From an archaeon (GTDB taxonomy: Archaea; Asgardarchaeota; Thorarchaeia; Thorarchaeales; Thorarchaeaceae): a stretch of DNA of 29,679 nt. Position numbers and translations under genes: made by a program. This document shows, one piece after another, positions 3,511 to 27,520 of this stretch. Numbering within the stretch: the stretch's first letter is position 1; each line of letters opens with the position of its first letter. The notes under the pieces were generated by a model. That model saw only the letters and a program-made list of their open reading frames with translations. It was not told the DNA's origin and did no database searches. Location: contig JAJRWI010000039.1 in the NCBI GenBank assembly GCA_024276825.1, positions 1 through 29,679 of the forward strand, in the 5' to 3' direction.

Positions 3511-4377
3511 TTACTCTAGGACAAACCGGTCAATTATATCTTGCAGTCGTGAGAGGCTTGTCTGATGGTCCTTCAACTTGCCATCGATGGGTATTGAAAG
3601 GCCTGATGCAAGATCGGGCTTCTCTGCCTGAAAGAAAACGCCAAGGGGAATCCTTTCATTGGACTCCATGACTTTCTCAATCGCCGCAATCTTGTCCGAT
3701 GGTTCATATTCATCTTCGATCAGATAGACTTTATCGTTGTAATAGTCCCAAGTGAGTTGGCGGTTCCATGTCACACAGGGCTGTAGAATGTCAACAATAG
3801 CAAAGCCTTTGTGCTGGATTGCCTTTGACATTATTTCAACAAGATGCTTTGTCTTTCCAGAAAATGCCCTGGCCACAAAGGTTGCACCGCTGGCTATTGC
3901 CATTGCCAAGTAGCTCACCGGCTCCATTGGAACTCCAGGTGGTGGAGGAGAGGTCACAGAAATATAACCGCGTGGTGACAGTGGTGAATATTGTCCCTTT
4001 GTTAGTCCCATGACACCGTTATTATGGACAAACACTGCTATGTTGACATTTCGTCTTGCTGCATGTAGCATGTGTCCAAGACCCTCACCAAGCATATCAC
4101 CGTCACCCGCATGCACTATGACTTTCAAGTCCTGATTGACCAGGTGTGCGCCTGTGGCAACTGGAATAGCTCTGCCATGAAGAGTATGGATGCTATTCAC
4201 ATTGATGTAGTGCGGAAGCTTGCCCGAACAACCAATTCCTGAAACCAGTAAAATTTCATGATGGGGAATCTCAAGACTCACAAGTGCCTTTTTCAATGAT
4301 GAAAGAATTCCAAAATTCCCGCATCCAGAACACCATGTCACTTTTTGCGGCGCGGTCAGGTCTTTCAATGTGATCAT
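3511..4377 (-). CDS. korB: 2-oxoacid:ferredoxin oxidoreductase beta subunit (TPP-binding)
   Basis: WCSGCG, SGIGCS, HTLHGRA, GDGD...NNGVMGLTKGQ.SP and QPCVTWN. 4-nt overlap with korA. Substrate specificity is inferred from the TCA context. Confidence 0.88.
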   Translation of the reverse strand: MITLKDLTAPQKVTWCSGCGNFGILSSLKKALVSLEIPHHEILLVSGIGCSGKLPHYINVNSIHTLHGRAIPVATGAHLVNQDLKVIVHAGDGDMLGEGLGHMLHAARRNVNIAVFVHNNGVMGLTKGQYSPLSPRGYISVTSPPPPGVPMEPVSYLAMAIASGATFVARAFSGKTKHLVEIMSKAIQHKGFAIVDILQPCVTWNRQLTWDYYNDKVYLIEDEYEPSDKIAAIEKVMESNERIPLGVFFQAEKPDLASGLSIPIDGKLKDHQTSLSRLQDIIDRFVLE

Positions 4378-6113
4378 TGGACACCCACCTCCTTAAGACG
4401 AGTAATGACCCAGCCTGCAGTCATAGGCCTCCCATCGTATTTGTTTATCATTTTATCAACATTCAGACCGGTTTCCATACGAACGAGCCTTGCAAACTGA
4501 GAGGTTGCATTCTGTTCGATTGATATCACACGCTTTGCCTGAGCGAATATGGCCATCAGTCTTTCAGTCTTGAGAGGAAAGACATCACTAAAATGCAGTT
4601 GATTGATTGAAACCCCATCAGCAGCTAAAATATTGACAGCTTCAAAGACAGGGCCCCATACAGTCCCCCAAGTCAGAAGAGTAGTTTCGGCATCGGGAGG
4701 ACCTTCAAGAGTTGGTGGGTTCAGAGCATCAAGAATCTGAGGAGTCTTCTTCATAAACTTCTCAACCATTTCGTTTCTCACATTTGGATCTTCGCTAATA
4801 TGACCGTCTTCGCGGTGAGTATTGCCCGCAGCTACAACTATCTTGCCAACATCACCAGGAAACGCCCTTGGTGAGATGCCATCTTCAGTCAGCTGAAACC
4901 TCTTGTATTCCCGATCAGATCCTCTTGGCGCAAGCTTTCCCCGATCAATCTTAATGCCAGTCACATCGATTCTTGGAATGTTCATGACAGAGTCAGCAAA
5001 GTACTGATCACCAAGAATCATTACAGGGACCTGGAATTTTTCGGCCAAATCAAATGCGCGCACAGTGATATTGAAACCCTCTAGTGGGTCCTTGGGTGCT
5101 AGTAGTATTCTAGGAAATTCGCCCTGACTTGCATGGGCCATAAAGAGAAGGTCTGACTGCTCGGTGCGAGTGGGAAGTCCTGTTGCAGGACCTGGTCGTT
5201 GAGCATTATATATTACAACTGGGGTTTCAGTCATTGCAGCAAGGCCCAGACCTTCGACCATCAGTGAGAATCCACCGCCAGAAGTGGTGACCATACTCCG
5301 AGCACCTGCAAATGATGCACCTATTGCCATTGTGAGTGAGGCTAACTCATCTTCGGTCTGAAAGGCACCGATTCTAAGAGTATGAGCAACTGAAACAATG
5401 TCTTGGAATGCACTTGTAGATGGGCTCATCGGATACGAGGATATCCATTTGACATTAGCAGCAAGTGCCCCAAATGCAATGGCACGGTTGCCACTAAGGA
5501 CCAGCTTGTCTTCTGATGGCCCACCACGTAGAGTGCTCAGGTCATGACTGCATTCACCCTGAAAATGATCTCGTGCAATATCGTAGATCGCACGTGCAAC
5601 CTTGATATTGGGCTGAATCACCTTCTCGCCCTTTTTCTGAAATATTGCTTCCAATGCTTCAGAGGCCATCTCAAAGGGATACTTCAGGACAGAGAGCACA
5701 GCCCCCAATGCTGCAGAGTTCGTCATTCGAGTGTCCCCGCCAACTTCCTTGGCAGTCTTCTCCAAAGGCAGCGGCAGATGACATTGCTCCAACTCGGTGA
5801 AGTCTATTGAGTCATCAAATATTATGACACCATTCTCAACCAGCTGGTCCCTCTTGCCTACTATAGCTGCTCTTGTGAGAGCAACAATCACATCAATCTC
5901 ATCATTTGAAGCATAGACAGGAATGTCTGAAACTCGTATTTGGGTGAAGTTATAGCCCCCCCTGATTCGAGACTCAAAGTCCTTTATGGTGAATGTATAA
6001 AACCCAGCCTTGACAAAAATCTGAGTGAGTAAGTCGCCAATTTTATCAATACCTTGACCAGCTGCGCCGCCAACATTGAAAGTGATGTCCATTGTCAATA
6101 TCTCTCCATTCAT
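4374..6113 (-). CDS. korA: 2-oxoacid:ferredoxin oxidoreductase alpha subunit (fused gamma-alpha)
   Basis: N-terminal gamma domain (GGAAGQGI, ESRIRGG), then YPMSPST, QTEDE, TTSGGGFSLM.E and QRPGPATGLPT.TEQSD. Alternative start ATG at 6092. Confidence 0.88.
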   Translation of the reverse strand: MNGEILTMDITFNVGGAAGQGIDKIGDLLTQIFVKAGFYTFTIKDFESRIRGGYNFTQIRVSDIPVYASNDEIDVIVALTRAAIVGKRDQLVENGVIIFDDSIDFTELEQCHLPLPLEKTAKEVGGDTRMTNSAALGAVLSVLKYPFEMASEALEAIFQKKGEKVIQPNIKVARAIYDIARDHFQGECSHDLSTLRGGPSEDKLVLSGNRAIAFGALAANVKWISSYPMSPSTSAFQDIVSVAHTLRIGAFQTEDELASLTMAIGASFAGARSMVTTSGGGFSLMVEGLGLAAMTETPVVIYNAQRPGPATGLPTRTEQSDLLFMAHASQGEFPRILLAPKDPLEGFNITVRAFDLAEKFQVPVMILGDQYFADSVMNIPRIDVTGIKIDRGKLAPRGSDREYKRFQLTEDGISPRAFPGDVGKIVVAAGNTHREDGHISEDPNVRNEMVEKFMKKTPQILDALNPPTLEGPPDAETTLLTWGTVWGPVFEAVNILAADGVSINQLHFSDVFPLKTERLMAIFAQAKRVISIEQNATSQFARLVRMETGLNVDKMINKYDGRPMTAGWVITRLKEVGVQ

Positions 6114-6132
6114 TATAGTTAAGTGTTGATGC

Positions 6133-6149
6133 GCTTATTAACTCCTTCG
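6133..6149 (-). promoter_or_regulatory. Putative BRE/TATA promoter of the kor-fum-sdh operon
   Basis: The minus strand reads CGAAGGAG-TTAATAA-GC, with the TATA-like box ending about 22 nt before ATG 6113. This fits a leaderless or short-leader archaeal transcript. Confidence 0.45.
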
Positions 6150-6169
6150 ATTGCTGAGTCAATCTGGGA

Positions 6170-7795
6170 TCATTCAAGCAATCCCGGATCGTGAGTGAAA
6201 CCTTTACGTTCCAAGAATTTCAGTCTCTTCTTGATTGGATGGCCCATGTAAGGAGTTGCAAACCCAGCATCGAGCAATTTATACAGCATATTTACATGTT
6301 GAGGAAATCTTCTTGCCAACTCCAGATCAAGACTAAATGACTTGAGTCTAAATAGAACATATCCAACTGTAGCCACTAGAAATATCCATGCAAAATAGCA
6401 GCCAAAAGCCGCTAGGATATCACCGCCAGAGAAAATATTTTGGAACATATAGATGATGTAAAACGGAAGTGCGCCGAACATCAGAATTGCAGGATATTTT
6501 TGGTATTTCGAAGTCAGCTTGGAGTATTTGATCTCATATACAATATAGGGGGTCAACATGTCGGGAGTCTTTAGCAATTCCATAATTGATGATGGAACTG
6601 AGAAGACAACATTTGAAGGAACGAGAATTCGAGAGTTGAAAATTGCAAGATAATCATGACCATGGCTAGTTTCTATCAATCTGACATAGTAACCATCGAG
6701 CCTTGCTACGTGATGCATCATATCCTCAATAACAGATGACAAGGACCCATGATAGGTCCGTTCATCAGTTTCTTCATCATTGTCCTTTCGGGGTCGCCAG
6801 ATATCTCGCATACTGTAGAAAATGATGGTGAAAAGAAAGGCAATACCTCCAAATAATAGAGCAAACATTAATGACATCACTGTCCTAATCGGCGATCCAA
6901 AAACCCCAATCACTAGCATGAATAGTATCACTGACACCAATGTTATGATTGAAATCACGGCTGCATTTCTAAATCGGTTCGTCTTCTCCTGGGATAGTTC
7001 ATCCTTTATTTTGGGTTTGGCTATCTCGAAGTATTCTGTCAGCTTCTCCTCACTGACTGTATCCTTACCAAAGACACGCATAAAAGCAACAACTGGGGGG
7101 ATATTGTAGAGTGATTCTACTGCCTCAAATTCTTCATCCTTATAGCTTCTGGACAATATGAACACGCCAAAAATCACAATTGCTGCTGCAAGTCCTCCAA
7201 TCATTAATGCCATGAAAACGGTTGCATTTGAAATGGGAGAGATTACATCAGTTATGTCAATGAACATGAATGCAGCCCAGATAACGCCAATCATGAAGTA
7301 AACTCCAGATTCCATGAACTGCTTGAAAGGAGTGTTTTTTCTAATTTTAGCAAGTTTGTAAGCAACGATGATTTCACTGCTTTCAGGATTGACCATCATG
7401 TCTTGGACTGCAATATTTGATAGTAATAACGAAGTAAATAATGGGGTCTTTGCCGCCATACATATCAATTTGTCAGACTTTCTAAGCCAGATCTGCACTT
7501 CATCTCTAAACCCAATTTTCGCCCTGGCGCGCTCCACAATCTCAGCAATTTCGGGGTCATCCAAGGGATTACCATATCTGATCTTGAGAATGGACAACCA
7601 GACAATGTAGAGAAGCATCCCTGCTGCAAGACTTGTAGTCGTCCAGATTAAAAAGAATGGTCGTATGTCCATAAGGAAGACCCATATTTGAGTCCAAATC
7701 ATTCCAATTATCCAGTTTCCACCGGAAGAGTTCATCTTGAAAAGAGGTGCTGATTCTTCAGCTCCTAAGTAGTATCCCCTCATCAGTGGTGACAT
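6170..7795 (-). CDS. Polytopic membrane protein, two degenerate M48 (HtpX/Ste24-like) peptidase-like repeats, probably inactive
   Basis: Multiple hydrophobic helices and two repeats of the M48-like layout ending in EIIVAYKLAKIR and TPYIVYEIKYSK, where HExxH is expected. C-terminal GHPIKKRL resembles the M48 THP...R motif. The start is uncertain. Confidence 0.5.
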   Translation of the reverse strand: MSPLMRGYYLGAEESAPLFKMNSSGGNWIIGMIWTQIWVFLMDIRPFFLIWTTTSLAAGMLLYIVWLSILKIRYGNPLDDPEIAEIVERARAKIGFRDEVQIWLRKSDKLICMAAKTPLFTSLLLSNIAVQDMMVNPESSEIIVAYKLAKIRKNTPFKQFMESGVYFMIGVIWAAFMFIDITDVISPISNATVFMALMIGGLAAAIVIFGVFILSRSYKDEEFEAVESLYNIPPVVAFMRVFGKDTVSEEKLTEYFEIAKPKIKDELSQEKTNRFRNAAVISIITLVSVILFMLVIGVFGSPIRTVMSLMFALLFGGIAFLFTIIFYSMRDIWRPRKDNDEETDERTYHGSLSSVIEDMMHHVARLDGYYVRLIETSHGHDYLAIFNSRILVPSNVVFSVPSSIMELLKTPDMLTPYIVYEIKYSKLTSKYQKYPAILMFGALPFYIIYMFQNIFSGGDILAAFGCYFAWIFLVATVGYVLFRLKSFSLDLELARRFPQHVNMLYKLLDAGFATPYMGHPIKKRLKFLERKGFTHDPGLLE

Positions 7796-7913
7796 AAAAG
7801 GGCCTCAAAACTAGTTCGCGCTGCAGCGAATAAAAATATTGAGTTGAAAGTTACATACGAGACTGGTTTCGATGAAACAGGCAGAAAATACTACCTTTCG
7901 ACAATTTTTTAAG

Positions 7914-7967
7914 TGAAGTGCATGCACAGTTTTCTTGGAGTACATGCTGAAGTGCATGTACAGTTTT
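7914..7967. repeat. 20-bp direct repeat pair with palindromic cores upstream of the thermosome (candidate operator array)
   Basis: TGAAGTGCATGCACAGTTTT (7914-7933) and TGAAGTGCATGTACAGTTTT (7948-7967) are 19/20 identical. There is also an inverted repeat GTACATGC-N6-GCATGTAC (7940-7961). Confidence 0.8.
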
Positions 7968-8036
7968 ATCGTAATGATAAGATAGAGTCCACAGTGAATT
8001 CGTGGGCCAAATAAAAATGAAAAAGGGGAATAAAAA

Positions 8037-9704
8037 ATGGCACAACTATCAGGTACACCCGTGCTGATCCTGAAGGAAGGTACCTCAAGAACACGAGGCA
8101 GAACAGCTCAGGAAAACAATATCATGGCAGGTATTGTTATTGCTGACGCTGTGAAATCCACTCTTGGTCCTCGTGGAATGGACAAGATGCTGGTTGATAG
8201 CTTGGGTGATGTCACTATCACAAACGATGGTGCATCAATTCTCAAAGAGATTGATGTTCAGCACCCAGCTGCAAAGATGCTTGTTGAGGTCGCTAAGAGT
8301 CAGGACCAAGAAACTGGTGATGGAACCACAAGTTCAGTCATCATTGCAGGAGAACTACTGAAGAAGGCAAGAGACCTTCTCGAGAAAAAGATTCATCCAA
8401 CCATCATTGTTGGAGGTTATCAGAAAGCTGCGGAGAAAGCTACTGAGATTCTTGATGAGATTGCAATCAAGATGGAGGGTCTTGACAAAAAGCTACTCAA
8501 TAAAATTGCATGCACATCAATGAACAGCAAATCAGTCATTGGAGCAAAGAATCACTTTGCGGACATTGCTGTAGATGCAATCCTTCAGATTATTGAGGAT
8601 GTTGAGGGAAAGCGAAAGGCTGACATTGACATGATTGAGATAATCAAAAAGCAGGGCAAGAGCCTCACTGAAACCGAACTGATCAAAGGCATGGTCGTTG
8701 ACAAAGAGGTTGTTCATGCGGCTATGCCGAGGAGAGTCGAGAGTCCAAAGATTGCTCTTGTCAATGCTGCCATTGAGGTCGAAAAGACCGAGTTCGATGC
8801 AGAGATCAAGATTGACAGCCCAGAGCAGATCAAAGCATTCCTCGATGAAGAAGAGCGCATGCTAAAGGCTATGGTTGATAAGATCATCAACACCGGTGCC
8901 AACGTTCTGATTTGCCAGAAAGGCATTGATGATGTTGCTCAGCACTACTTAGCTAAAGCAGGTATTCTGGCTGTTAGAAGAGCCAAGAAGAGTACATTGG
9001 AGAAACTTGCCAAAGCAACAGGCGGAAAGATTGCTTCAAGCCTTGATGAACTCGACGAGAGCTACCTCGGTGAGGCAGGCCTTGTTGAAGAGATCAAGCT
9101 CGGCGATGACAAGCTCGTTTACATCCGCGAGTGCAAGGATCCAAAGGCCGTTTCAATTGTCATACGCGGCGGAACCGAGCACGTAGTTGATGAGGCAGAC
9201 AGAGCACTGCACGATGCCCTCTGCGTTGTGAGAAATGTCATTGAAGATAGCACCTATGTTGCTGGTGGAGGAGCTGTTGAAGCAGAGATCGCCAAACGAC
9301 TTGAAACCTATGCAAACAAGGTTGGCGGTCGCGAGCAGCTCGCTATTGAGGCATTCGCAGAGGCCCTACGTGTGATACCGAAGACACTGGCAGAAAACGG
9401 TGGCCATGATCCCATTGATATCATGACAGAGCTCAATAAGGAGCACGCCAAGGAAGAGGGTATCTGGTATGGTGTTGATGTCATGAAGGGCAAAGTCACC
9501 GACATGTTGAAGGGCGGTATCATTGAGCCAGCTCGTGTCAAGCTACAAGCAATCCGTTCCGCATCAGAGGCTGCACAGATGATCCTCAGAATTGATGATG
9601 TGATTGCAGCTAAAGCATCCCCACCAAGCCAATCCGGCGGTGAAGGTGGCATGGGTGGTATGGGTGGCATGGGCGGAATGGGCGGCATGCCTGGCATGAT
9701 GTAA
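8037..9704 (+). CDS. ths: Thermosome subunit (group II chaperonin)
   Basis: [54 protein letters not shown] and a C-terminal GGM repeat tail. Confidence 0.97.
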
Positions 9705-20485: not shown

Positions 20486-22102
20486 ATGGAGCCAGATGAA
20501 CAGGGTTCTGGACCCAAGTCTAGTTTTGATAGAGAGATGTACATGGAGATCTTGCGTGATGAACCACCACTCAGAAGATATGTATCGAGAGGCGACACTC
20601 CCGATCAGGTTGATATTCCAGGTCCTCATCTTGTTGCTGACAGAGCAATCTTCAGAGCTGTGAGGTTCACTATGCAAGATGGAACACCACGACTACAGCC
20701 TGTACTTGGCAGTGCGGGGATGGGCAAGACTCACCTTTACTGGGTAATTAAGGAGCATGAAGAGATTTTTTCCAAAGGAAAATTCACTGCAATTTACGTG
20801 CCATCACCACCAGCTCCAGTAAGAATCCCACTGCATTTTCATGCCTGCATAGTTGATGAGATGGGTGAAGAACTGTTTGAGCAGACGGTGGACTATCTAA
20901 TCACAAGATTTGGTGGATTAAAGGGTGTCACCCATGAGATATATGATTATACTTATGCTTTGGAGCGTCTGTTAGTGGACTACCCAGGCATCTCGTCAGA
21001 TGTGGTCAAGGTTCTTCTCAGATATCGCCTTGATCCGCCAACAAGAGAGCTTGCAAGACGTTGGCTTCTGGGAGATGCACTTAGCGATGATGAAACCGCC
21101 AAGTTAGAGGTGAGGACTGTCCTTGAGGATGATGATGTTGTTCTTGCAACATTGAAGTTGCTTGCTGAGGGGTCAGAGCGTCCAATGGTTCTCTTTATCG
21201 ATGAAATGGAGGGTCCCTATAATAGTCATGGAGAGGAAGGAGAGAGATACTTTCTGGAGGTTCTCAAGAGGATATACAATGAGTGCAAAAATATTGTGAT
21301 CATTGCCTCTTGCTTGACAGAAATCTGGGACAGAATATACGAGATTGCAGATGCACCCATGAAATCACGAATGGAGCCTCCAGTTGCACTCAGACATTTT
21401 ACAAAAGAAGACATTGCATCATTCGTCAAGGAAACTATGATCAGATATTGGAAATCACAGAATATTGAGGCACCGCCAGACCCTCTATTTCCATTTACAG
21501 AGTCGGACATAGAGGACGCATTCAATCATTCTCAAGGAGTGCCAAGAGAAGCCATTCGTTTCTTGATTCCTCGTTTGGATAACATTCTATTCGAAACTCC
21601 AGTCAAAGAGGTTGAAGCTCAGGCAGATTATGTGATCAAGCTCACACCAACAGTAGTTCTGGGTGCTGTTGTGTCTGCTCTAACAATAATGGCGGGAACG
21701 ATGAGTATGGAGGCAAATCTACTGATGGCATCTGGAGGGACTCAAAAGCAGAGCGCAGCAATTATTGTGCTTAACAAGGCTGATTCCTCTTTCAACATTG
21801 GAATTGATGTTCCAAATGTCAAGGACTGGAATAGAAGTGGGGGTGTTGCCGCATATTATTCTGCAAAACGCCTTAAGAAAGCAATAGAGTCAGGTGAAGT
21901 AGCATTCTCAGTGATAGCAGTCCCAGAGAATACTAAAGGAACGAAATTTGAAGTAATAAGAAAAGACATGAAGGACAAATTGGCAGTCCTTCAATTGAAT
22001 GAGAAGACAGCCACAACACTTGTTGAAGCAACAAACAGTGGTACTGTTCCAGATGAACTGAGGGAGTTCTTCAAGGAACTCTTGATACTAGCATCAAGCT
22101 GA
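20486..22102 (+). CDS. AAA+ family P-loop ATPase with an extra C-terminal domain
   Basis: Walker A GSAGMGKT, Walker B VLFIDEME, putative Arg finger KSRM, lid motif GVPRE and ARRWLLG (a WLxG helix as in BrxD-like ATPases). Confidence 0.75.
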   Translation: MEPDEQGSGPKSSFDREMYMEILRDEPPLRRYVSRGDTPDQVDIPGPHLVADRAIFRAVRFTMQDGTPRLQPVLGSAGMGKTHLYWVIKEHEEIFSKGKFTAIYVPSPPAPVRIPLHFHACIVDEMGEELFEQTVDYLITRFGGLKGVTHEIYDYTYALERLLVDYPGISSDVVKVLLRYRLDPPTRELARRWLLGDALSDDETAKLEVRTVLEDDDVVLATLKLLAEGSERPMVLFIDEMEGPYNSHGEEGERYFLEVLKRIYNECKNIVIIASCLTEIWDRIYEIADAPMKSRMEPPVALRHFTKEDIASFVKETMIRYWKSQNIEAPPDPLFPFTESDIEDAFNHSQGVPREAIRFLIPRLDNILFETPVKEVEAQADYVIKLTPTVVLGAVVSALTIMAGTMSMEANLLMASGGTQKQSAAIIVLNKADSSFNIGIDVPNVKDWNRSGGVAAYYSAKRLKKAIESGEVAFSVIAVPENTKGTKFEVIRKDMKDKLAVLQLNEKTATTLVEATNSGTVPDELREFFKELLILASS

Positions 22103-22114
22103 GTGTGACAAATG

Positions 22115-23209
22115 TCAGACTGGTGAGAATTCCTTCTCTTCAATAACAACAGGCATCAGAGGTTTCATTTCTGCATCATTAAAGCAGGCCTCTATTCTAC
22201 TAATCCTAATTCGCTTGGCAGAAAAAGGCTCAGTTGGCTCCAGCCATAGATCAATCATCTGAGAGTCCTGACCAGGAGCAACGATGCTATCAAATGACCA
22301 GAGCATGCCAGCAAGCAAATTGGTTTCAGTTTCGGGAATTTCTATGGTTATCTTCAGATTTGTTGCAGGTCCTTTGCCCGCATTGTGAGCCCAGATCTTG
22401 ACATGAAAGCGGCAGTTCTCTCGTTCGATTTCGTCAGCATTCATCATTACTTTGATGTCAGGGGGCATTGTTCTCACGGTCAAAGGGACCGAAATGCTGT
22501 GAGTTATTGCTCGTTCATCGCTATGTCGAACTAGGTATTCTATTGTGATAGAGTGCTTGCCGGGATCCTTCGGCGTCAGAAAGGTCTCAACTGACACAGT
22601 ACTGTTCGAGTCCACATTCAAAATAGGCTCTATCCTTTCGCAATAGCATGCACTTGCTCGAATCCGGGGTTCTATGCTTCTTACTGGTTTGTTCAGTCTA
22701 TTGTGGAACTCAAGTCTGAAAGGTGTCCTGACCAGTGTGGGGGTTATTTCAGGGGAAACCACATGAAGTGTTACTTCAGGCGTTTTCGACCTTGCAGTTA
22801 CACGCAGCTTGTTGGACCGAATTGTCTGAATTTTATCATCATCGAAACGAGCATCTAATTCAAGAGGTCCAATGACATAATCTCCTGGGCTTTTCACCCT
22901 CAGCATGTAAAGCATTTTCAAACGTTGTGCGGCAATTAGACCACTAGGGGGCTCATCTGGAATCACCCGCTCAATCTCAATATTCTTGGGAATCAGAAGT
23001 CTCATGTCAACAATCTCAAAACTCTCGTAAGGAATGATCAGAGCCCGAATGAACAAAGGACTATCACTGAGTTCAATTGTGCCGATTTCAGGTAGGATAA
23101 TATTACAAACGGGAGGCCCTTTACATGAAACTACATGCTGTTGGTAAGCAGTTGAAGAGAATAGCCTACCACATTTTCTACATCGGATTACATGCTGTGA
23201 GTTAGGCAT
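22115..23209 (-). CDS. Hypothetical protein: C2HC zinc finger plus about three Ig-like beta-sandwich domains
   Basis: CRKC-X11-H-X3-C, then beta-rich repeats (PGDYVIGPLEL, PGKHSITIEY, NAGKGPATNLKITI) like BatD/CARDB Ig folds. No signal peptide. ATG 23209 has an AGGTG SD. Confidence 0.55.
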   Translation of the reverse strand: MPNSQHVIRCRKCGRLFSSTAYQQHVVSCKGPPVCNIILPEIGTIELSDSPLFIRALIIPYESFEIVDMRLLIPKNIEIERVIPDEPPSGLIAAQRLKMLYMLRVKSPGDYVIGPLELDARFDDDKIQTIRSNKLRVTARSKTPEVTLHVVSPEITPTLVRTPFRLEFHNRLNKPVRSIEPRIRASACYCERIEPILNVDSNSTVSVETFLTPKDPGKHSITIEYLVRHSDERAITHSISVPLTVRTMPPDIKVMMNADEIERENCRFHVKIWAHNAGKGPATNLKITIEIPETETNLLAGMLWSFDSIVAPGQDSQMIDLWLEPTEPFSAKRIRISRIEACFNDAEMKPLMPVVIEEKEFSPV

Positions 23210-23351
23210 TCTTTGCACCTATGAGGCAGATTGTAAACTATCTTTTACTTAAGTTATTACTGTATTCAGCAGCAAGCCTGCAGAAAAATGTAAATGTGTA
23301 GAAAGTTCACCTGAAACTTGCTGTTATAGCCTATGAGAGGTGAAGCCGAAG

Positions 23352-23522
23352 ATGACAGTTACAATTAAGATGCTCAGGGACAAAGAAACGAAGAATTATG
23401 TAAAGTTTAAGATTGAAGAGAATGAACACATTGAGGATTTCCAGAAAGGCATCTATATCAAGAAGGGTAGTGAGCTAGCAAGTGCGAGATCAATTATTCT
23501 CACATTGGAGATTGAAGAATGA
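23352..23522 (+). CDS. Small beta-rich hypothetical protein
   Basis: Strong GAGGTG SD before ATG 23352. Sequence pattern KETKNYVKF...GIYIKK...IILTLE. Confidence 0.6.
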   Translation: MTVTIKMLRDKETKNYVKFKIEENEHIEDFQKGIYIKKGSELASARSIILTLEIEE

Positions 23523-23622
23523 TGACTTGTTTTTGAATGCTCGTCTGCTTATTTTTTACGAGTTTAAGTACCAGAATGGCGCATATGTTGTTGAACCAAC
23601 TCAAGGGAGGGCCGAAAGAATT

Positions 23623-23898
23623 ATGCAAGTTGAAGTCGTTCGAGAGTGTTTTCCTGCATCGGTCATTGAACATGATTTGAGGATACGTCTTGCAGCCTTT
23701 CCATTTGATGCGCACTCGTGGTATTTGCTTGGTTGCCATCTGATGAAGGAACATCGATTAGAAGACGCCCGTACTGCGCTTGAGACCGCGGTTGATTTGC
23801 GGCCAAGCATAACAGTGTTCAGGATGAGACTTGCTCTGCTCTATGAGATACTTAGCTTGAATAAGCGGGCCAAGCAGCAACATGAGAAGTGCAATTGA
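23623..23898 (+). CDS. Small tetratricopeptide-repeat protein
   Basis: PFDAHSWYLLGCHLMKEHRLEDARTALETAVDLRP is a canonical TPR, followed by a second partial repeat. The ORF is open from 23482; ATG 23623 has GGGAGG upstream. Confidence 0.65.
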   Translation: MQVEVVRECFPASVIEHDLRIRLAAFPFDAHSWYLLGCHLMKEHRLEDARTALETAVDLRPSITVFRMRLALLYEILSLNKRAKQQHEKCN

Positions 23899-24597
23899 TT
23901 AAAACTTGAGGATATCATCTAGTAATGTTTCACTAAGAGAACTTGCATCAATACCGCCGTTTTCATGAAGTAGTTCAACTGAGTGGAATGTGTACTTTAC
24001 TTTTCTCTTCTTAATAAAACCAAGAGTTTCTGGAATGACTCCTGACACATTTAGGCCCAAAGCATGGTCATTGAAGCCAGTCTTTCTTGCATTGGGGGCA
24101 ATGAAAATGATCTTCTTGACCTTCTTAAAGAACTTCCACCAAGGCTTAAACCATTTAATCAGCGGCAGAGCAATTGTCTTTAATGAAGACTCAAAGGCCT
24201 TTTGATTGAATCCAGGCAAATCGCTTTCAGGTGCGCCTAGAAGTTTTAGCTGTTTAGGAATTTCTGACACTCGCAAAAAAATCACTGCACGATCAGATTT
24301 GGCAATGCATCTACCGACATCATTGGATTGAGTGAGAAAGTGATTGTGGGTATAAACCGATTCTATCAAGCGGATTTTTTTCTTTTTATAGTGGACGGTT
24401 GCAAAGTAATCTCTTGACAGGTTCCTGATTGCCTGGGGTTTCTCTGCCAGCGCTGCATCAATAATATGACCATAGAGTGGATGCAGTGGATCGATCTGCC
24501 CCAGATCACTTTTCTCAAGAGCTATTGTCATTGCTGCGATAAAGAGTGATCGTGTGCTACCATCCTGTCCTACAAACACCAGTTCCTTTGGCATCAA
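23899..24597 (-). CDS. Inactive (pseudo-)GTPase, paralogue of the two adjacent GTPases
   Basis: Colinear with the 25598 protein (VFVGQDGSTRSLFIAA vs ALIGNPGVGKTTFLIAA; PLYGHIIDAALAEKP vs PEYGTLVDLLISGKP; matching C-terminus), but lacks GKT, DxxG and TK. Confidence 0.68.
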   Translation of the reverse strand: MMPKELVFVGQDGSTRSLFIAAMTIALEKSDLGQIDPLHPLYGHIIDAALAEKPQAIRNLSRDYFATVHYKKKKIRLIESVYTHNHFLTQSNDVGRCIAKSDRAVIFLRVSEIPKQLKLLGAPESDLPGFNQKAFESSLKTIALPLIKWFKPWWKFFKKVKKIIFIAPNARKTGFNDHALGLNVSGVIPETLGFIKKRKVKYTFHSVELLHENGGIDASSLSETLLDDILKF

Positions 24598-24627: not shown

Positions 24628-25578
24628 CTAGTCATCTTTCAGATTCTTCAGCTTCTCAATTCTCTCAAAAGCATCTACGAGTGCGCGTGTGTAGTCATTT
24701 ATGTCCTCAATCTTCTTCTTCCCATGCAATCGAAGTAATTGGTGAATAGTCACTACATGATCATGTTTGTTTAACCCAATCCATGGTTCATCTAATAGTT
24801 CATTGAATATGGTTTCAACAGAATCTAACACTTTATTCTTGGTGAGCAATTCCTCCTTTCGTAGATTAATGAGTGCAGCCTTCTGTTTCTTCAATTGATT
24901 CTTGTCATCCTTGTCAAGCTCCAGCCCATCATGTGGAACTGGAAAGCCGCGGATTCTTGTCCATACCTCGGATGGATCAAAGCTATCAACAGAGGATACA
25001 AAGGTGAGTTTGTCCTTCAAACGTGGGCCAATAACCATGTAGGTCACTTTTAGAAAGTCCAGAAACTCCTGTATATTTCCCTTCTCATAGAAAATGTATG
25101 TCACTGGACTTTTTATGACGGCAGACACGCCTTCTAGGATAAAGTCACGATCATACTTGTTTATTCTCTTCACCCATGATTTCCAAATAGTATCATCAGC
25201 AAGCATCATGAAGGAAGCATTGACAATTGATTCCAGTGCAATCTGGTTGATGTTAGACCCAGCCTTCACCATGTTGCTAAGTGCTTCCAATGAGCTGATG
25301 GGGTTTGCAAGAAAGCCTAGTTCATCACTAAGGATAACATGAGATAATGTGTTTTCTCTTCCTTCATGATCCCTCTCGCCGCGAACAGTTATTGCTATTG
25401 CAAAATGATCCTCGTCGGCCCAGAATCCAGAGAAGACTTTGAGCAGGGGGTCACGAAACCAGCCAGATGGCAAGTCCTTGGGTGTCGACTTCATAGCGAT
25501 AATACTTCTGAGCTCATCACTCACTTCGCCCAAGACCGCAGGGTTCTGCTGGAATGGAACATAGAGGTATGCTTTCAT
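24628..25578 (-). CDS. GTPase-associated protein (GAP1-N2/GAP1-M-like, possibly DENN-like architecture)
   Basis: N-terminal beta-rich domain with RDHEGRENTLSHVIL, resembling the D-x-x-G-R...H motif of GAP1-N2. Middle alpha/beta domain ends in PRLKDKLTFVS. It sits between GTPase genes with 19- and 30-nt gaps. Confidence 0.55.
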   Translation of the reverse strand: MKAYLYVPFQQNPAVLGEVSDELRSIIAMKSTPKDLPSGWFRDPLLKVFSGFWADEDHFAIAITVRGERDHEGRENTLSHVILSDELGFLANPISSLEALSNMVKAGSNINQIALESIVNASFMMLADDTIWKSWVKRINKYDRDFILEGVSAVIKSPVTYIFYEKGNIQEFLDFLKVTYMVIGPRLKDKLTFVSSVDSFDPSEVWTRIRGFPVPHDGLELDKDDKNQLKKQKAALINLRKEELLTKNKVLDSVETIFNELLDEPWIGLNKHDHVVTIHQLLRLHGKKKIEDINDYTRALVDAFERIEKLKNLKDD

Positions 25579-25597: not shown

Positions 25598-26311
25598 TTA
25601 TTTCTTCACCTTGCAGACAACAGATAATGCATCGAAAAAGATGGGCTCAAACCCCTCTGGGTCAAGCTTTCCATCTTTTCCTCTACTGTCTATCTCAAAC
25701 ATGTTAATCATAACACCCCTCTCTTTGGCCATATTCAGAAGAGGTGTTAGCTGTTCTTCAAAGAGAGTGATCATGTCGTCAAAATAATGACTATGAAGAT
25801 TACTTTTTGTGAACACAAAACCAAAATATTTGATATCACGTTCATTTCGGAGGATGTATCTGATTGCCCTGTCAATAGGTTCTATCTGTCCAGCAAGAGA
25901 GTGTGCGAAATTTTCACTCAATGATGGATCTAGAAGAAATAGGGCTGCAAATGCGTCTTTCACTGCTTCCTGAAAGTTATAGGTTGCTGCGCGATAGTCC
26001 TGTCCAGACATGTCAATGATCTTGAAAGTAATCTTTCCAAAGACCCCAGTCTTCAACTCAACTCCTTTATAGGAAACATTGCTAAACTCCAATGCATATT
26101 CAGCAATTCTAAGAGTTGGAGAGAGGGGTTTTCCAGAGATCAAGAGATCAACAAGGGTGCCATATTCTGGGGGGAGCTCCTTGAACTTTATTCGTGCCCA
26201 CCCTATTTTGTCAAGATAGTGAATAGCAGCAATGAGGAATGTAGTCTTGCCTACTCCAGGGTTTCCAATGAGGGCAATCCCCTTGCCAGAAGCTGTTAGA
26301 CTAGAGATCAT
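25598..26311 (-). CDS. TRAFAC-clade GTPase (paralogue A)
   Basis: G1 GNPGVGKT, G2 SPT, G3 DMSG, G4-like TKSN and G5-like DSRG. Confidence 0.8.
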   Translation of the reverse strand: MISSLTASGKGIALIGNPGVGKTTFLIAAIHYLDKIGWARIKFKELPPEYGTLVDLLISGKPLSPTLRIAEYALEFSNVSYKGVELKTGVFGKITFKIIDMSGQDYRAATYNFQEAVKDAFAALFLLDPSLSENFAHSLAGQIEPIDRAIRYILRNERDIKYFGFVFTKSNLHSHYFDDMITLFEEQLTPLLNMAKERGVMINMFEIDSRGKDGKLDPEGFEPIFFDALSVVCKVKK

Positions 26312-26551: not shown

Positions 26552-27520
26552 TTGGGCAAGACAATCTCATTCATTGGAAATCCAGGCACAGGAAAGACCA
26601 CTTTTCTGGTGGCATCTATACATAGGTTATCGGAGATTGGTTGGATTAAGATCAATTTGAAAAAGCTTCCAAAGGATTATGGCCTGTGGGTGGATGCACT
26701 CATCTCTGGTGAAGCAATACCTCCTACTGTTAAAGACTATGAGTACCCCTTGGAGTTTAACAGAACAGTAACCTACAAGGGATCTACAATCAAACTTGGT
26801 AGGTTCTTTGGAGTAACTATGAAGGTTAGAGACCTTCGTGGTGAAGACTATCGGCGAACAACAAAGGCATTCAAAGATTCTGTGAGCGGCGCTTCTGCAG
26901 TGCTTGTGACAATTGATGCCTCAAGATCAATAGATTTGGGCGAGGCACTCGGTGGACAGATTCAGCCTCTAATTGATGGAATTAGGTATATGGTTGAGAC
27001 CCAGAGCTCGTTAAAATACATTGGCCTAATCTTCACCAAGCGTTCATTCCATAATCATACAATATCAGACATAAGGGAGTGGGTCCACATTCCGCTGGGC
27101 CCGATAATTCGTTATCTTAAAGAGGAAGAAATTGAGTTCAGAGTTTTGGAAGTGGACAGCAGAGGGGCAGAGAACAAATTCAATCCATGGGGAATAGAGG
27201 CAGTGTACTATGATGTACTCTCCACATTAGGCAAAGTCACTGGTACAAAGATCGATGTGACGATGGACCCAGATAACATCTGGATTGACACCAGTATTAC
27301 GCCCCCAATTGACGCGAAACCACAGACCCCAGAACCACAGACCGAAGAGCAAGCTCCTGTCTACAAGCTGGGGTATAGGGTGAAGCAAAAGAAGTCACCA
27401 AAACCAAAGCCAAAAGAGGGTGGACAGGTTGGGGTAATGTATCTGGTCATCTGTCCATCATGTGGATACAAGAACCCTCAAGGACTCACTAAATGCAAGA
27501 ATTGTGGTGGGCCTCTATAA
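26552..27520 (+). CDS. TRAFAC-clade GTPase (paralogue B) with Pro/Lys-rich linker and C-terminal zinc ribbon
   Basis: G1 GNPGTGKT, G2 PPT, G3 DLRG, G4-like TKRS and DSRG. Tail PPIDAKPQTPEPQT...KQKKSPKPKPK...CPSC-X10-CKNC. TTG start with a GGGGTG SD. Confidence 0.8.
   Translation: MGKTISFIGNPGTGKTTFLVASIHRLSEIGWIKINLKKLPKDYGLWVDALISGEAIPPTVKDYEYPLEFNRTVTYKGSTIKLGRFFGVTMKVRDLRGEDYRRTTKAFKDSVSGASAVLVTIDASRSIDLGEALGGQIQPLIDGIRYMVETQSSLKYIGLIFTKRSFHNHTISDIREWVHIPLGPIIRYLKEEEIEFRVLEVDSRGAENKFNPWGIEAVYYDVLSTLGKVTGTKIDVTMDPDNIWIDTSITPPIDAKPQTPEPQTEEQAPVYKLGYRVKQKKSPKPKPKEGGQVGVMYLVICPSCGYKNPQGLTKCKNCGGPL

Follow-up and report, generated by a model that had tools for sequence, protein, structure and literature searches.

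The window, the whole 29,679-nt stretch of DNA that was analysed, contains a module of G-domain genes in which a degenerate G-domain protein (the window protein, P0001) is encoded last in a same-strand trio of GTPase A, a partner protein and the degenerate paralogue. The genes of the module and the features of the degenerate protein are:

23899 to 24594, minus strand: coding sequence of the degenerate G-domain protein, 231 aa plus stop, starting at the ATG at 24592 to 24594 and not at the TTG at 24595 to 24597
24547 to 24570, minus strand: eroded Walker A (G1) motif, residues 9 to 16, GQDGSTRS instead of GxxxxGK[ST]
24415 to 24489, minus strand: helix inserted after alpha1, residues 36 to 60, PLHPLYGHIIDAALAEKP..., shared with GTPases A and B (LPxEYGxxVD)
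24349 to 24372, minus strand: Walker B (G3) place, residues 75 to 82, RLIESVYT, without DxxG; Glu78 is invariant in 13 of 13 family members
24115 to 24165, minus strand: basic/aromatic segment, residues about 144 to 160, LIKWFKPWWKFFKKVKK / PLIKWFKPWWKFFKKVK, conserved family-wide
24085 to 24114, minus strand: G4 place, residues 161 to 170, KIIFIAPNAR; GTPases A and B have TK here
23902 to 24009, minus strand: conserved C-terminal block, residues 196 to 231, KR.V.YSFH..EL...GGI...L..IL
24628 to 25578, minus strand: partner, 316 aa, no Pfam match; predicted longin domain (residues 1 to 127) and DENN-like alpha/beta domain
25598 to 26311, minus strand: GTPase A, 237 aa, with intact G1, PT, DxxG, TK and DSRG
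26552 to 27520, plus strand: GTPase B, 322 aa, 43% identical to GTPase A, with a C-terminal zinc ribbon; divergently transcribed

The open reading frame of the degenerate protein spans 23899–24597 on the minus strand (232 codons), and its translation shows codon 1 to be TTG, directly followed by ATG. Since MPK or MAK forms the N terminus in all orthologues and the database copy of the window protein has 231 aa, the coding sequence was set at 23899–24594. The minus-strand frame, trimmed to the ATG start at 24594, is open, as the first-pass annotation had claimed, and the motifs quoted there are present: GQDGSTRS at residues 9–16, LIESVYT at the Walker B/G3 place and FIAPNA at the G4 place. A motif table shows that, with G1 reading GQDGSTRS, the window protein lacks DxxG, PT, TK/NKxD and DSRG altogether. 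The PT (G2-like) motif, which follows next after the insert helix in GTPases A and B and in basal orthologues, is gone; the C-terminal block (residues 196–231) pairs with the block that bears DSRG in GTPases A and B, and DSRG itself is missing. An antisense ORF at 23990–24205 on the plus strand, opposite conserved coding sequence, is open in relatives too.

The order GTPase, partner, degenerate paralogue recurs wherever a contig is long enough to reveal it, and the stop and start codons of module genes abut or overlap in several loci. GTPases A and B keep G1, PT, DxxG and DSRG and have a TK without the guanine-reading Asp; GTPase B also has a low-complexity linker before its zinc ribbon. The partner was modeled at pLDDT 83.8. 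Its residues 1–127 match longin domains (FNIP2/FLCN, Z 10.0; Lst4, Z 9.5; a Lokiarchaeota longin, Z 9.2) and include an invariant motif, G..D..GR.N..SH, whereas residues 121–316 resemble the DENN domains of SMCR8 and FLCN (Z 7.8–8.7, with SMCR8 at 8.7). Matches to TagF (Z 8.3) and DENND1B (Z 8.0) span both domains.

Downstream of the degenerate gene lie genes for a TPR protein (23482–23898, plus strand) and for a protein with a zinc finger and a beta-sandwich (DUF7490/BatD-like; 22115–23218, minus strand). An equivalent TPR gene is present in both close relatives (L007 and L013), and L013 has a 368-aa gene in the second position; no BLASTP match to the downstream TPR and zinc-finger proteins was found in the fetched flanks of more distant orthologous loci. 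These two genes are probably shared synteny outside the module. A 538-aa ORF at 20486–22102 (plus strand) has a weak AAA_16 match (E 2e-4) and could encode a STAND-like NTPase. Thermosome, POR, SDH and UvrB genes are found elsewhere in the window.

Paralogy with GTPases A and B and predicted fold

Pairwise, the window protein resembles GTPase A weakly, with a BLASTP E of 5e-4 over the N-terminal 78 aa only. A profile of seven orthologues (A1) aligned with a profile of ten A/B proteins (A3) at an hhalign probability of 98.4% and E 6.9e-15; the alignment comprises 208 columns from residue 1 to 231, C-terminal pairing included. This bears out the end-to-end match to GTPase A that had been proposed by eye. 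An orthologue of intermediate sequence, from genome G052, matched GTPase A by BLASTP with an E of 1.8e-10 over 215 aa, and a genome-wide search put the number of paralogues in the window's genome at exactly three, every one within this locus. On profile comparison, the window protein is a true paralogue of GTPases A and B.

We predicted the structure of the window protein with AlphaFold2 from a seven-sequence alignment. The model has a pLDDT of 82.8 and a pTM of 0.83, and only residues 113–127 are disordered. Nearly all of the top PDB matches listed by Foldseek were G-domains, all with probability 1.0; they include EF-Tu, Arl1, Asgard ArfR, RagA-like proteins, SR-beta and G-alpha. Re-alignment to solved small GTPases gave Z 15.1 for Arl8 (rmsd 2.8, 161 aa) and Z 14.8 for LokiRagO. 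In a shape search of the ESM Atlas, the best matches had TM 0.72–0.74 and covered 208–216 of the 231 residues; clusters of the DO-GTPase1/2 Pfam families made up four of the top five. DO-GTPase2 clusters were also found, at 0.92, among the language-model look-alikes of the protein. AlphaFold2, superposition and Foldseek thus describe one six-stranded fold that superposes on small GTPases, as in TRAFAC-class G-domains. A fold other than a G-domain had been set beforehand as the result that would speak against the first-pass reading; the predicted protein has a G-domain fold and over its full length is most DO-GTPase-like.

We also considered whether the likeness to GTPase A reflects chance or a generic P-loop resemblance in a protein that is no G-domain. 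The pairwise BLASTP match is weak, Pfam gave nothing above cut-off for P0001 or any of its orthologues, and PDB sequence searches with the A1 and A3 profiles returned no meaningful match. The profiles nevertheless align end to end at 98.4% although the window copy has no P-loop, and the fold matches reach Z 15 and TM 0.73. We give this explanation practically no weight.

The degenerate gene had been described as a third paralogue, and here the picture has to be redrawn. Three basal-clade contexts contain a GTPase, the partner and the degenerate paralogue, with no GTPase B seen; these are the G052 genome (97% complete), in which a whole-genome search found one A/B-type GTPase only, and two contigs with about 5–6 kb of upstream flank. 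Because the basal trio is seen without GTPase B, the degenerate gene, the second member of the paralogous pair, is old, and GTPase B is a later duplicate of GTPase A.

Motif loss and selection in a small family

About 13 orthologues were found in total, all from metagenome assemblies, and those that could be placed in genomes or that carry source names belong to Thorarchaeota/Promethearchaeia MAGs. An exhaustive profile search of 1.84 billion representatives returned 11 proteins, including one GTPase B and one 72-aa fragment; another of the 11, P0016 (768 aa), is a HEAT-repeat protein and was rejected as a spurious repeat match. Of 400 genomes searched across the phylum, six carry the family; all six belong to one GTDB family, a family of Thorarchaeota in which the module is present in 6 of 86 genomes with the window's own counted. 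The A/B family comprises 17 clusters, and each source name given is Thorarchaeota or Promethearchaeia. G010, a genome of the same genus that consists of a single, apparently closed contig, contains none of the three paralogues (GTPases A and B and the degenerate one), and the module is therefore accessory. Peptide patterns searched against JGI/ENA metagenome contigs revealed no further orthologues or decayed copies; a degenerate DNA pattern for FKPWWKF hit 81 loci in these contigs, none related by tblastn.

A canonical Walker A motif (GxxxSGKT) is retained in 8 of the 13 orthologues. In all 13, DxxG is replaced by the invariant Glu and SFH stands at the DSRG (G5-like) place. The state of the motifs in GTPases A and B and across the family is:

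GTPases A and B: G1 GxxGxGK[ST]; G2-like PPT/SPT; G3 D..G; G4-like FTK; G5-like DSRG (ESRG in one)
Basal clade (five members): G1 kept (one GKP); PT kept in 3 of 5; G4 place TK in 3 of 5 and TR in 1
P0009: G1 kept; PT kept; TK at the G4 place lost
Three g15 genomes: G1 kept; PT lost; G4 lost
G011: G1 is GKA; PT lost; G4 lost
P0011: G1 is GPDGSGRS; PT lost; G4 lost
P0007: G1 is GPDIGSRS; PT lost; G4 lost
Window copy: G1 is GQDGSTRS; PT lost; G4 lost

In the maximum-likelihood tree the window protein and P0007 are sisters (support 100/99), joined by P0011 (98/96). Since these three form one clade, Lys changed to Arg once, on their stem, and the loop eroded afterwards; the GKA and GKP variants of Walker A are independent events on the tree. 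Read from the aligned motifs, the losses are real and derived within the family, and the window copy is its most degenerate member, in a family that is already non-canonical.

We examined selection on the gene with P0007, to which the window protein is 72% identical in amino acids and 73% in nucleotides, with no indels. The dN/dS of this pair was 0.10–0.15 by four methods, an approximate figure that rests on one close pair with dS near saturation (1.1–1.7). For comparison, dN/dS was 0.07–0.11 for the P-loop-intact g15 orthologues, 0.06–0.07 for GTPase A and 0.07–0.22 for the partner. When we simulated neutral evolution to the divergence of this pair, 0.33% of 20,000 replicates kept an open frame, and amino-acid identity averaged 0.50 with a maximum of 0.59 (observed, 0.72). 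The eroded Walker A state occurs in intact form in three independent assemblies. The window gene is kept by purifying selection; neutral decay, which the first-pass annotation had named as an outcome that would refute its reading, is rejected.

It is accordingly very improbable that the gene is a decaying pseudogene still open by chance. Such a gene would be expected to look as this one does in two respects: its catalytic motifs are gone, and it is the fastest-evolving gene of the operon, with 25–37% identity where GTPase A keeps 48–57%. Against this stand an omega of 0.10–0.14 and the absence of indels at 27% nucleotide divergence, the small share of neutral replicates that remain open, none reaching 72% identity, and the three intact assemblies.

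The differences between the window protein and P0007 are unevenly spread. Residues 41–60 (the insert helix, with 1 of 20 positions changed), 141–160 (KPWWKF) and 201–231 are near-invariant, and the changes fall mostly in residues 11–30, 61–90 and 101–130. The P-loop and alpha1 region (residues 11–30) alone has eight differences between these two closest orthologues. This block pattern, which is descriptive, fits selection on binding surfaces and not on the nucleotide site. Variability of the P-loop octet was set aside as evidence of relaxed constraint, as 4 changes in 8 positions against 28% divergence overall is not significant.

Proposed role of the degenerate subunit

We favor, with a probability of roughly 0.6, the reading that the window gene is the degenerate half of an old paralogous G-domain pair and encodes a non-catalytic subunit of a rare Thorarchaeota module. 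A degenerate subunit within a paralogous NTPase pair is a familiar concept. The two paralogous G-domain proteins flank the longin/DENN-like partner, in the order GTPase, partner, degenerate gene. Across the whole orthologous group, DxxG has been swapped for the invariant Glu and the DSRG block has been lost. On the branch to the window, the PT (G2-like) and TK (G4-like) motifs went before Walker A, which changed last, from Lys to Arg on the three-member stem and then from the second Gly to Thr or Ser. The protein is under purifying selection all the same, and its conserved positions cluster in three blocks off the nucleotide site, namely the insert helix, the KPWWKF segment and the C-terminal strand–helix. 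We infer from these sequences that the window protein neither binds nor hydrolyses nucleotide any longer. It may instead be a constitutive, nucleotide-independent structural subunit that pairs with GTPase A and/or docks on the partner, and its basic/aromatic segment may be the docking surface for the partner or for a membrane. P-loop-intact orthologues without G3 may bind nucleotide, yet would not switch normally.

The protein shows two marks of a pseudoGTPase, a G-domain fold that has lost the consensus G motifs and maintenance by selection; a third, the absence of nucleotide hydrolysis and/or binding, is predicted from its motifs. The first-pass proposal of a pseudo-GTPase therefore holds as regards fold, purifying selection and motif losses derived within the family, but two of its details were wrong: the gene is not a late third copy, and the basic/aromatic segment was not gained.

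In nucleotide binding, Arg can sometimes take the place of the Walker A Lys. The window protein could on that basis still bind nucleotide through a non-canonical P-loop, and possibly be a slow NTPase, making it an altered switch and not a dead one; Arg15 would then stand in for Lys, Ser16 would hold Mg2+ and the part of Walker B would fall to the invariant Glu78. The Lys-to-Arg change is conservative, Ser16 and Glu78 are kept, P0011 (GPDGSGRS) still has both glycines, and P-loop-intact orthologues have an equally low omega. The loop itself argues otherwise: for the second conserved Gly the window protein has Thr and P0007 has Ser, an Asp lies inside the loop, and four of the eight loop positions vary between close orthologues but none among the three g15 orthologues. 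The G2-like PT, G3 DxxG, TK and DSRG are all missing as well. We consider retained nucleotide binding unlikely.

The KPWWKF segment is present in 13 of 13 family members, P-loop-intact ones included, in forms such as FKPWWKF.RK and FRP.KFRRK, and is absent from GTPases A and B. Because P-loop-intact members have it, the segment is older than the degeneration; it is an ancestral feature of the family and not, as had been thought, one that the window protein gained. Its helical hydrophobic moment (0.78) exceeds that of any other part of the protein, in line with the amphipathic helix suggested for it. A confident free helix is, however, not what the AlphaFold2 model contains: the segment forms the end of helix 131–149 and the loop before strand 161–168, at a pLDDT of about 68.

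These properties bear on a further possibility, that KPWWKF is an amphipathic membrane-binding element and the protein mainly anchors the module to the membrane. Besides its hydrophobic moment, the segment is invariant between the two closest orthologues, and all family members keep its basic/aromatic character. No transmembrane segment was noticed on reading the translations and models of the module. Basic/aromatic patches of this kind form protein–protein interfaces equally often, a Pro lies mid-segment, and in the model the segment is no free terminal helix but is packed before strand 5, at moderate confidence (pLDDT about 68). For published DO-GTPase systems, a site of action near the membrane has been predicted (PMC7159879). 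Membrane anchoring as the main role is a real but minority possibility.

Comparison with known GTPase systems

The closest described system is the DO-GTPase/GAP1 class. DO-GTPases (double-GTPases; PF19975/PF19993) belong to GTPase-centric conflict systems (Kaur, Burroughs, Iyer, Aravind 2020, PMC7159879), and the class combines paralogous GTPases and zinc ribbons with a multi-domain partner downstream, the GAP1 protein with its N, M and C domains. The same paper describes a conserved Glu in the Walker B motif and no degenerate or inactive DO-GTPase paralogue (PMC7159879). Like these systems, the window operon has paralogous G-domains, one with a zinc ribbon, and a non-GTPase partner directly downstream; the window G-domain, inserts included, best matches DO-GTPase clusters over its full length (TM 0.72–0.74), and the module is sporadic and accessory, being absent from the single-contig G010. 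Unlike them, it has its zinc ribbon at the C terminus and not at the N terminus, the partner has no GAP1 Pfam match (E up to 1), and no variable effector gene is evident.

Sequence profiles gave a fainter picture. P0001 had no match to the DO-GTPase Pfam models; orthologues scored 11–15 bits and GTPases A and B up to 21.7, against a gathering score of 27, and these subthreshold matches of orthologues and A/B cover mostly the P-loop region. The weak PF19993 matches were discarded as evidence, as in a search of the own genome many unrelated P-loop genes scored alike and A/B did not come out on top. The A3 profile aligned with a bona fide Asgard DO-GTPase2 of genome G230 (hhalign 86.7%, E 4.4e-6), with PPT, D.SGED and LDP motifs in common; a profile of the 13-member family (A4) matched the same protein by hhalign at nothing beyond the P-loop. 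Glu78 lies at the end of strand 3 in the window family, where GTPases A and B have D..GE/Q/K. The link to DO-GTPases consists of fold and subthreshold profile signal, and membership is not established.

Other comparisons are with eukaryotic proteins. The eukaryotic pseudoGTPases CENP-M, p190RhoGAP pG1/pG2 and the Rnd proteins (reviewed in PMC10211241) resemble the window protein in being selected G-domains with eroded G motifs, presumed to act by binding. They show no sequence relationship to it, and the window protein differs in being archaeal, in sharing an operon with active paralogues and in belonging to an orthologous group that spans P-loop-intact and P-loop-lost states. The Rag/Gtr GTPases with FLCN–FNIP or GATOR1 are paralleled in the window by two different G-domain subunits with a longin/DENN-type protein, by the match of the window G-domain to LokiRagO (Z 14.8) and by the matches of the partner to FNIP2/FLCN, Lst4 and SMCR8. 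The three G proteins of the window, however, have no C-terminal roadblock domain, and there is no roadblock gene. Pfam yielded no Rag, Arf or Rab model at cut-off for the window protein or A/B, and a weak subthreshold Gtr1_RagA match for GTPase A only. The 231-aa model consists of a single G-domain, without the roadblock dimerisation domain of Rag/Gtr proteins, and P0001 had no Gtr1_RagA match. Its likeness to Arf/Arl proteins, which have an N-terminal amphipathic helix, is at the level of the fold, with no Arf match, a first strand that begins at residue 3 and no NKxD. A known Asgard DENN operon encodes a roadblock protein, a Rab-like GTPase and a DENN protein (bioRxiv 10.1101/2020.10.19.343400), and its gene content differs from that of the window module.

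The module is best described as combining known kinds, pseudoGTPases and DO-GTPase systems, with the window gene as the degenerate half of a double-GTPase-type pair. PseudoGTPases have been recorded almost only in eukaryotes, and a full-text literature search for archaeal pseudoGTPases found incidental mentions only; the window protein is an archaeal candidate, in an operon with active paralogues and a longin/DENN-like protein. Its orthologues, from P-loop-intact to P-loop-lost, form a natural series in which to see what role a G-domain has after nucleotide loss and which surfaces selection protects. It is a tentative and on balance rather unlikely proposition that this one Asgard orthologous group holds successive stages from a nucleotide-binding G-domain to a nucleotide-free pseudoGTPase, within a module where DO-GTPase-type G-domains are combined with a longin/DENN-type partner. 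The stages may run from G1, G2 and TK together to G1 only, then to Lys replaced by Arg and finally to a ruined loop. Should the partner be truly related both to bacterial GAP1 and to eukaryotic longin-DENN regulators of the FLCN/SMCR8 type, prokaryotic GTPase conflict systems and the Rag/Arf regulatory machinery of eukaryotes would be connected through this module. The significance is limited by the size of the family (about 13 proteins, all from metagenomes) and by its presence in 6 of the 86 genomes searched in one GTDB family.

The only bona fide DO-GTPase pair among the 400 Asgard genomes is at locus L030 (G230:C516:15000-30000), with ORFs on the minus strand at 8063–8923, 7057–8037 and 3821–7003. 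Downstream of the pair is a 1060-aa protein without a Pfam match, in which LDHVGRSILLTH at residues about 80–91 resembles RDHEGRENTLSH of the partner at the same N-terminal position. Profile comparison of the two proteins gave an hhalign probability of 4.6%, the DHxGRxxxL[ST]H motif being all that they have in common. Through the 1060-aa protein, GAP1-type partners might be connected with those of the longin/DENN type.
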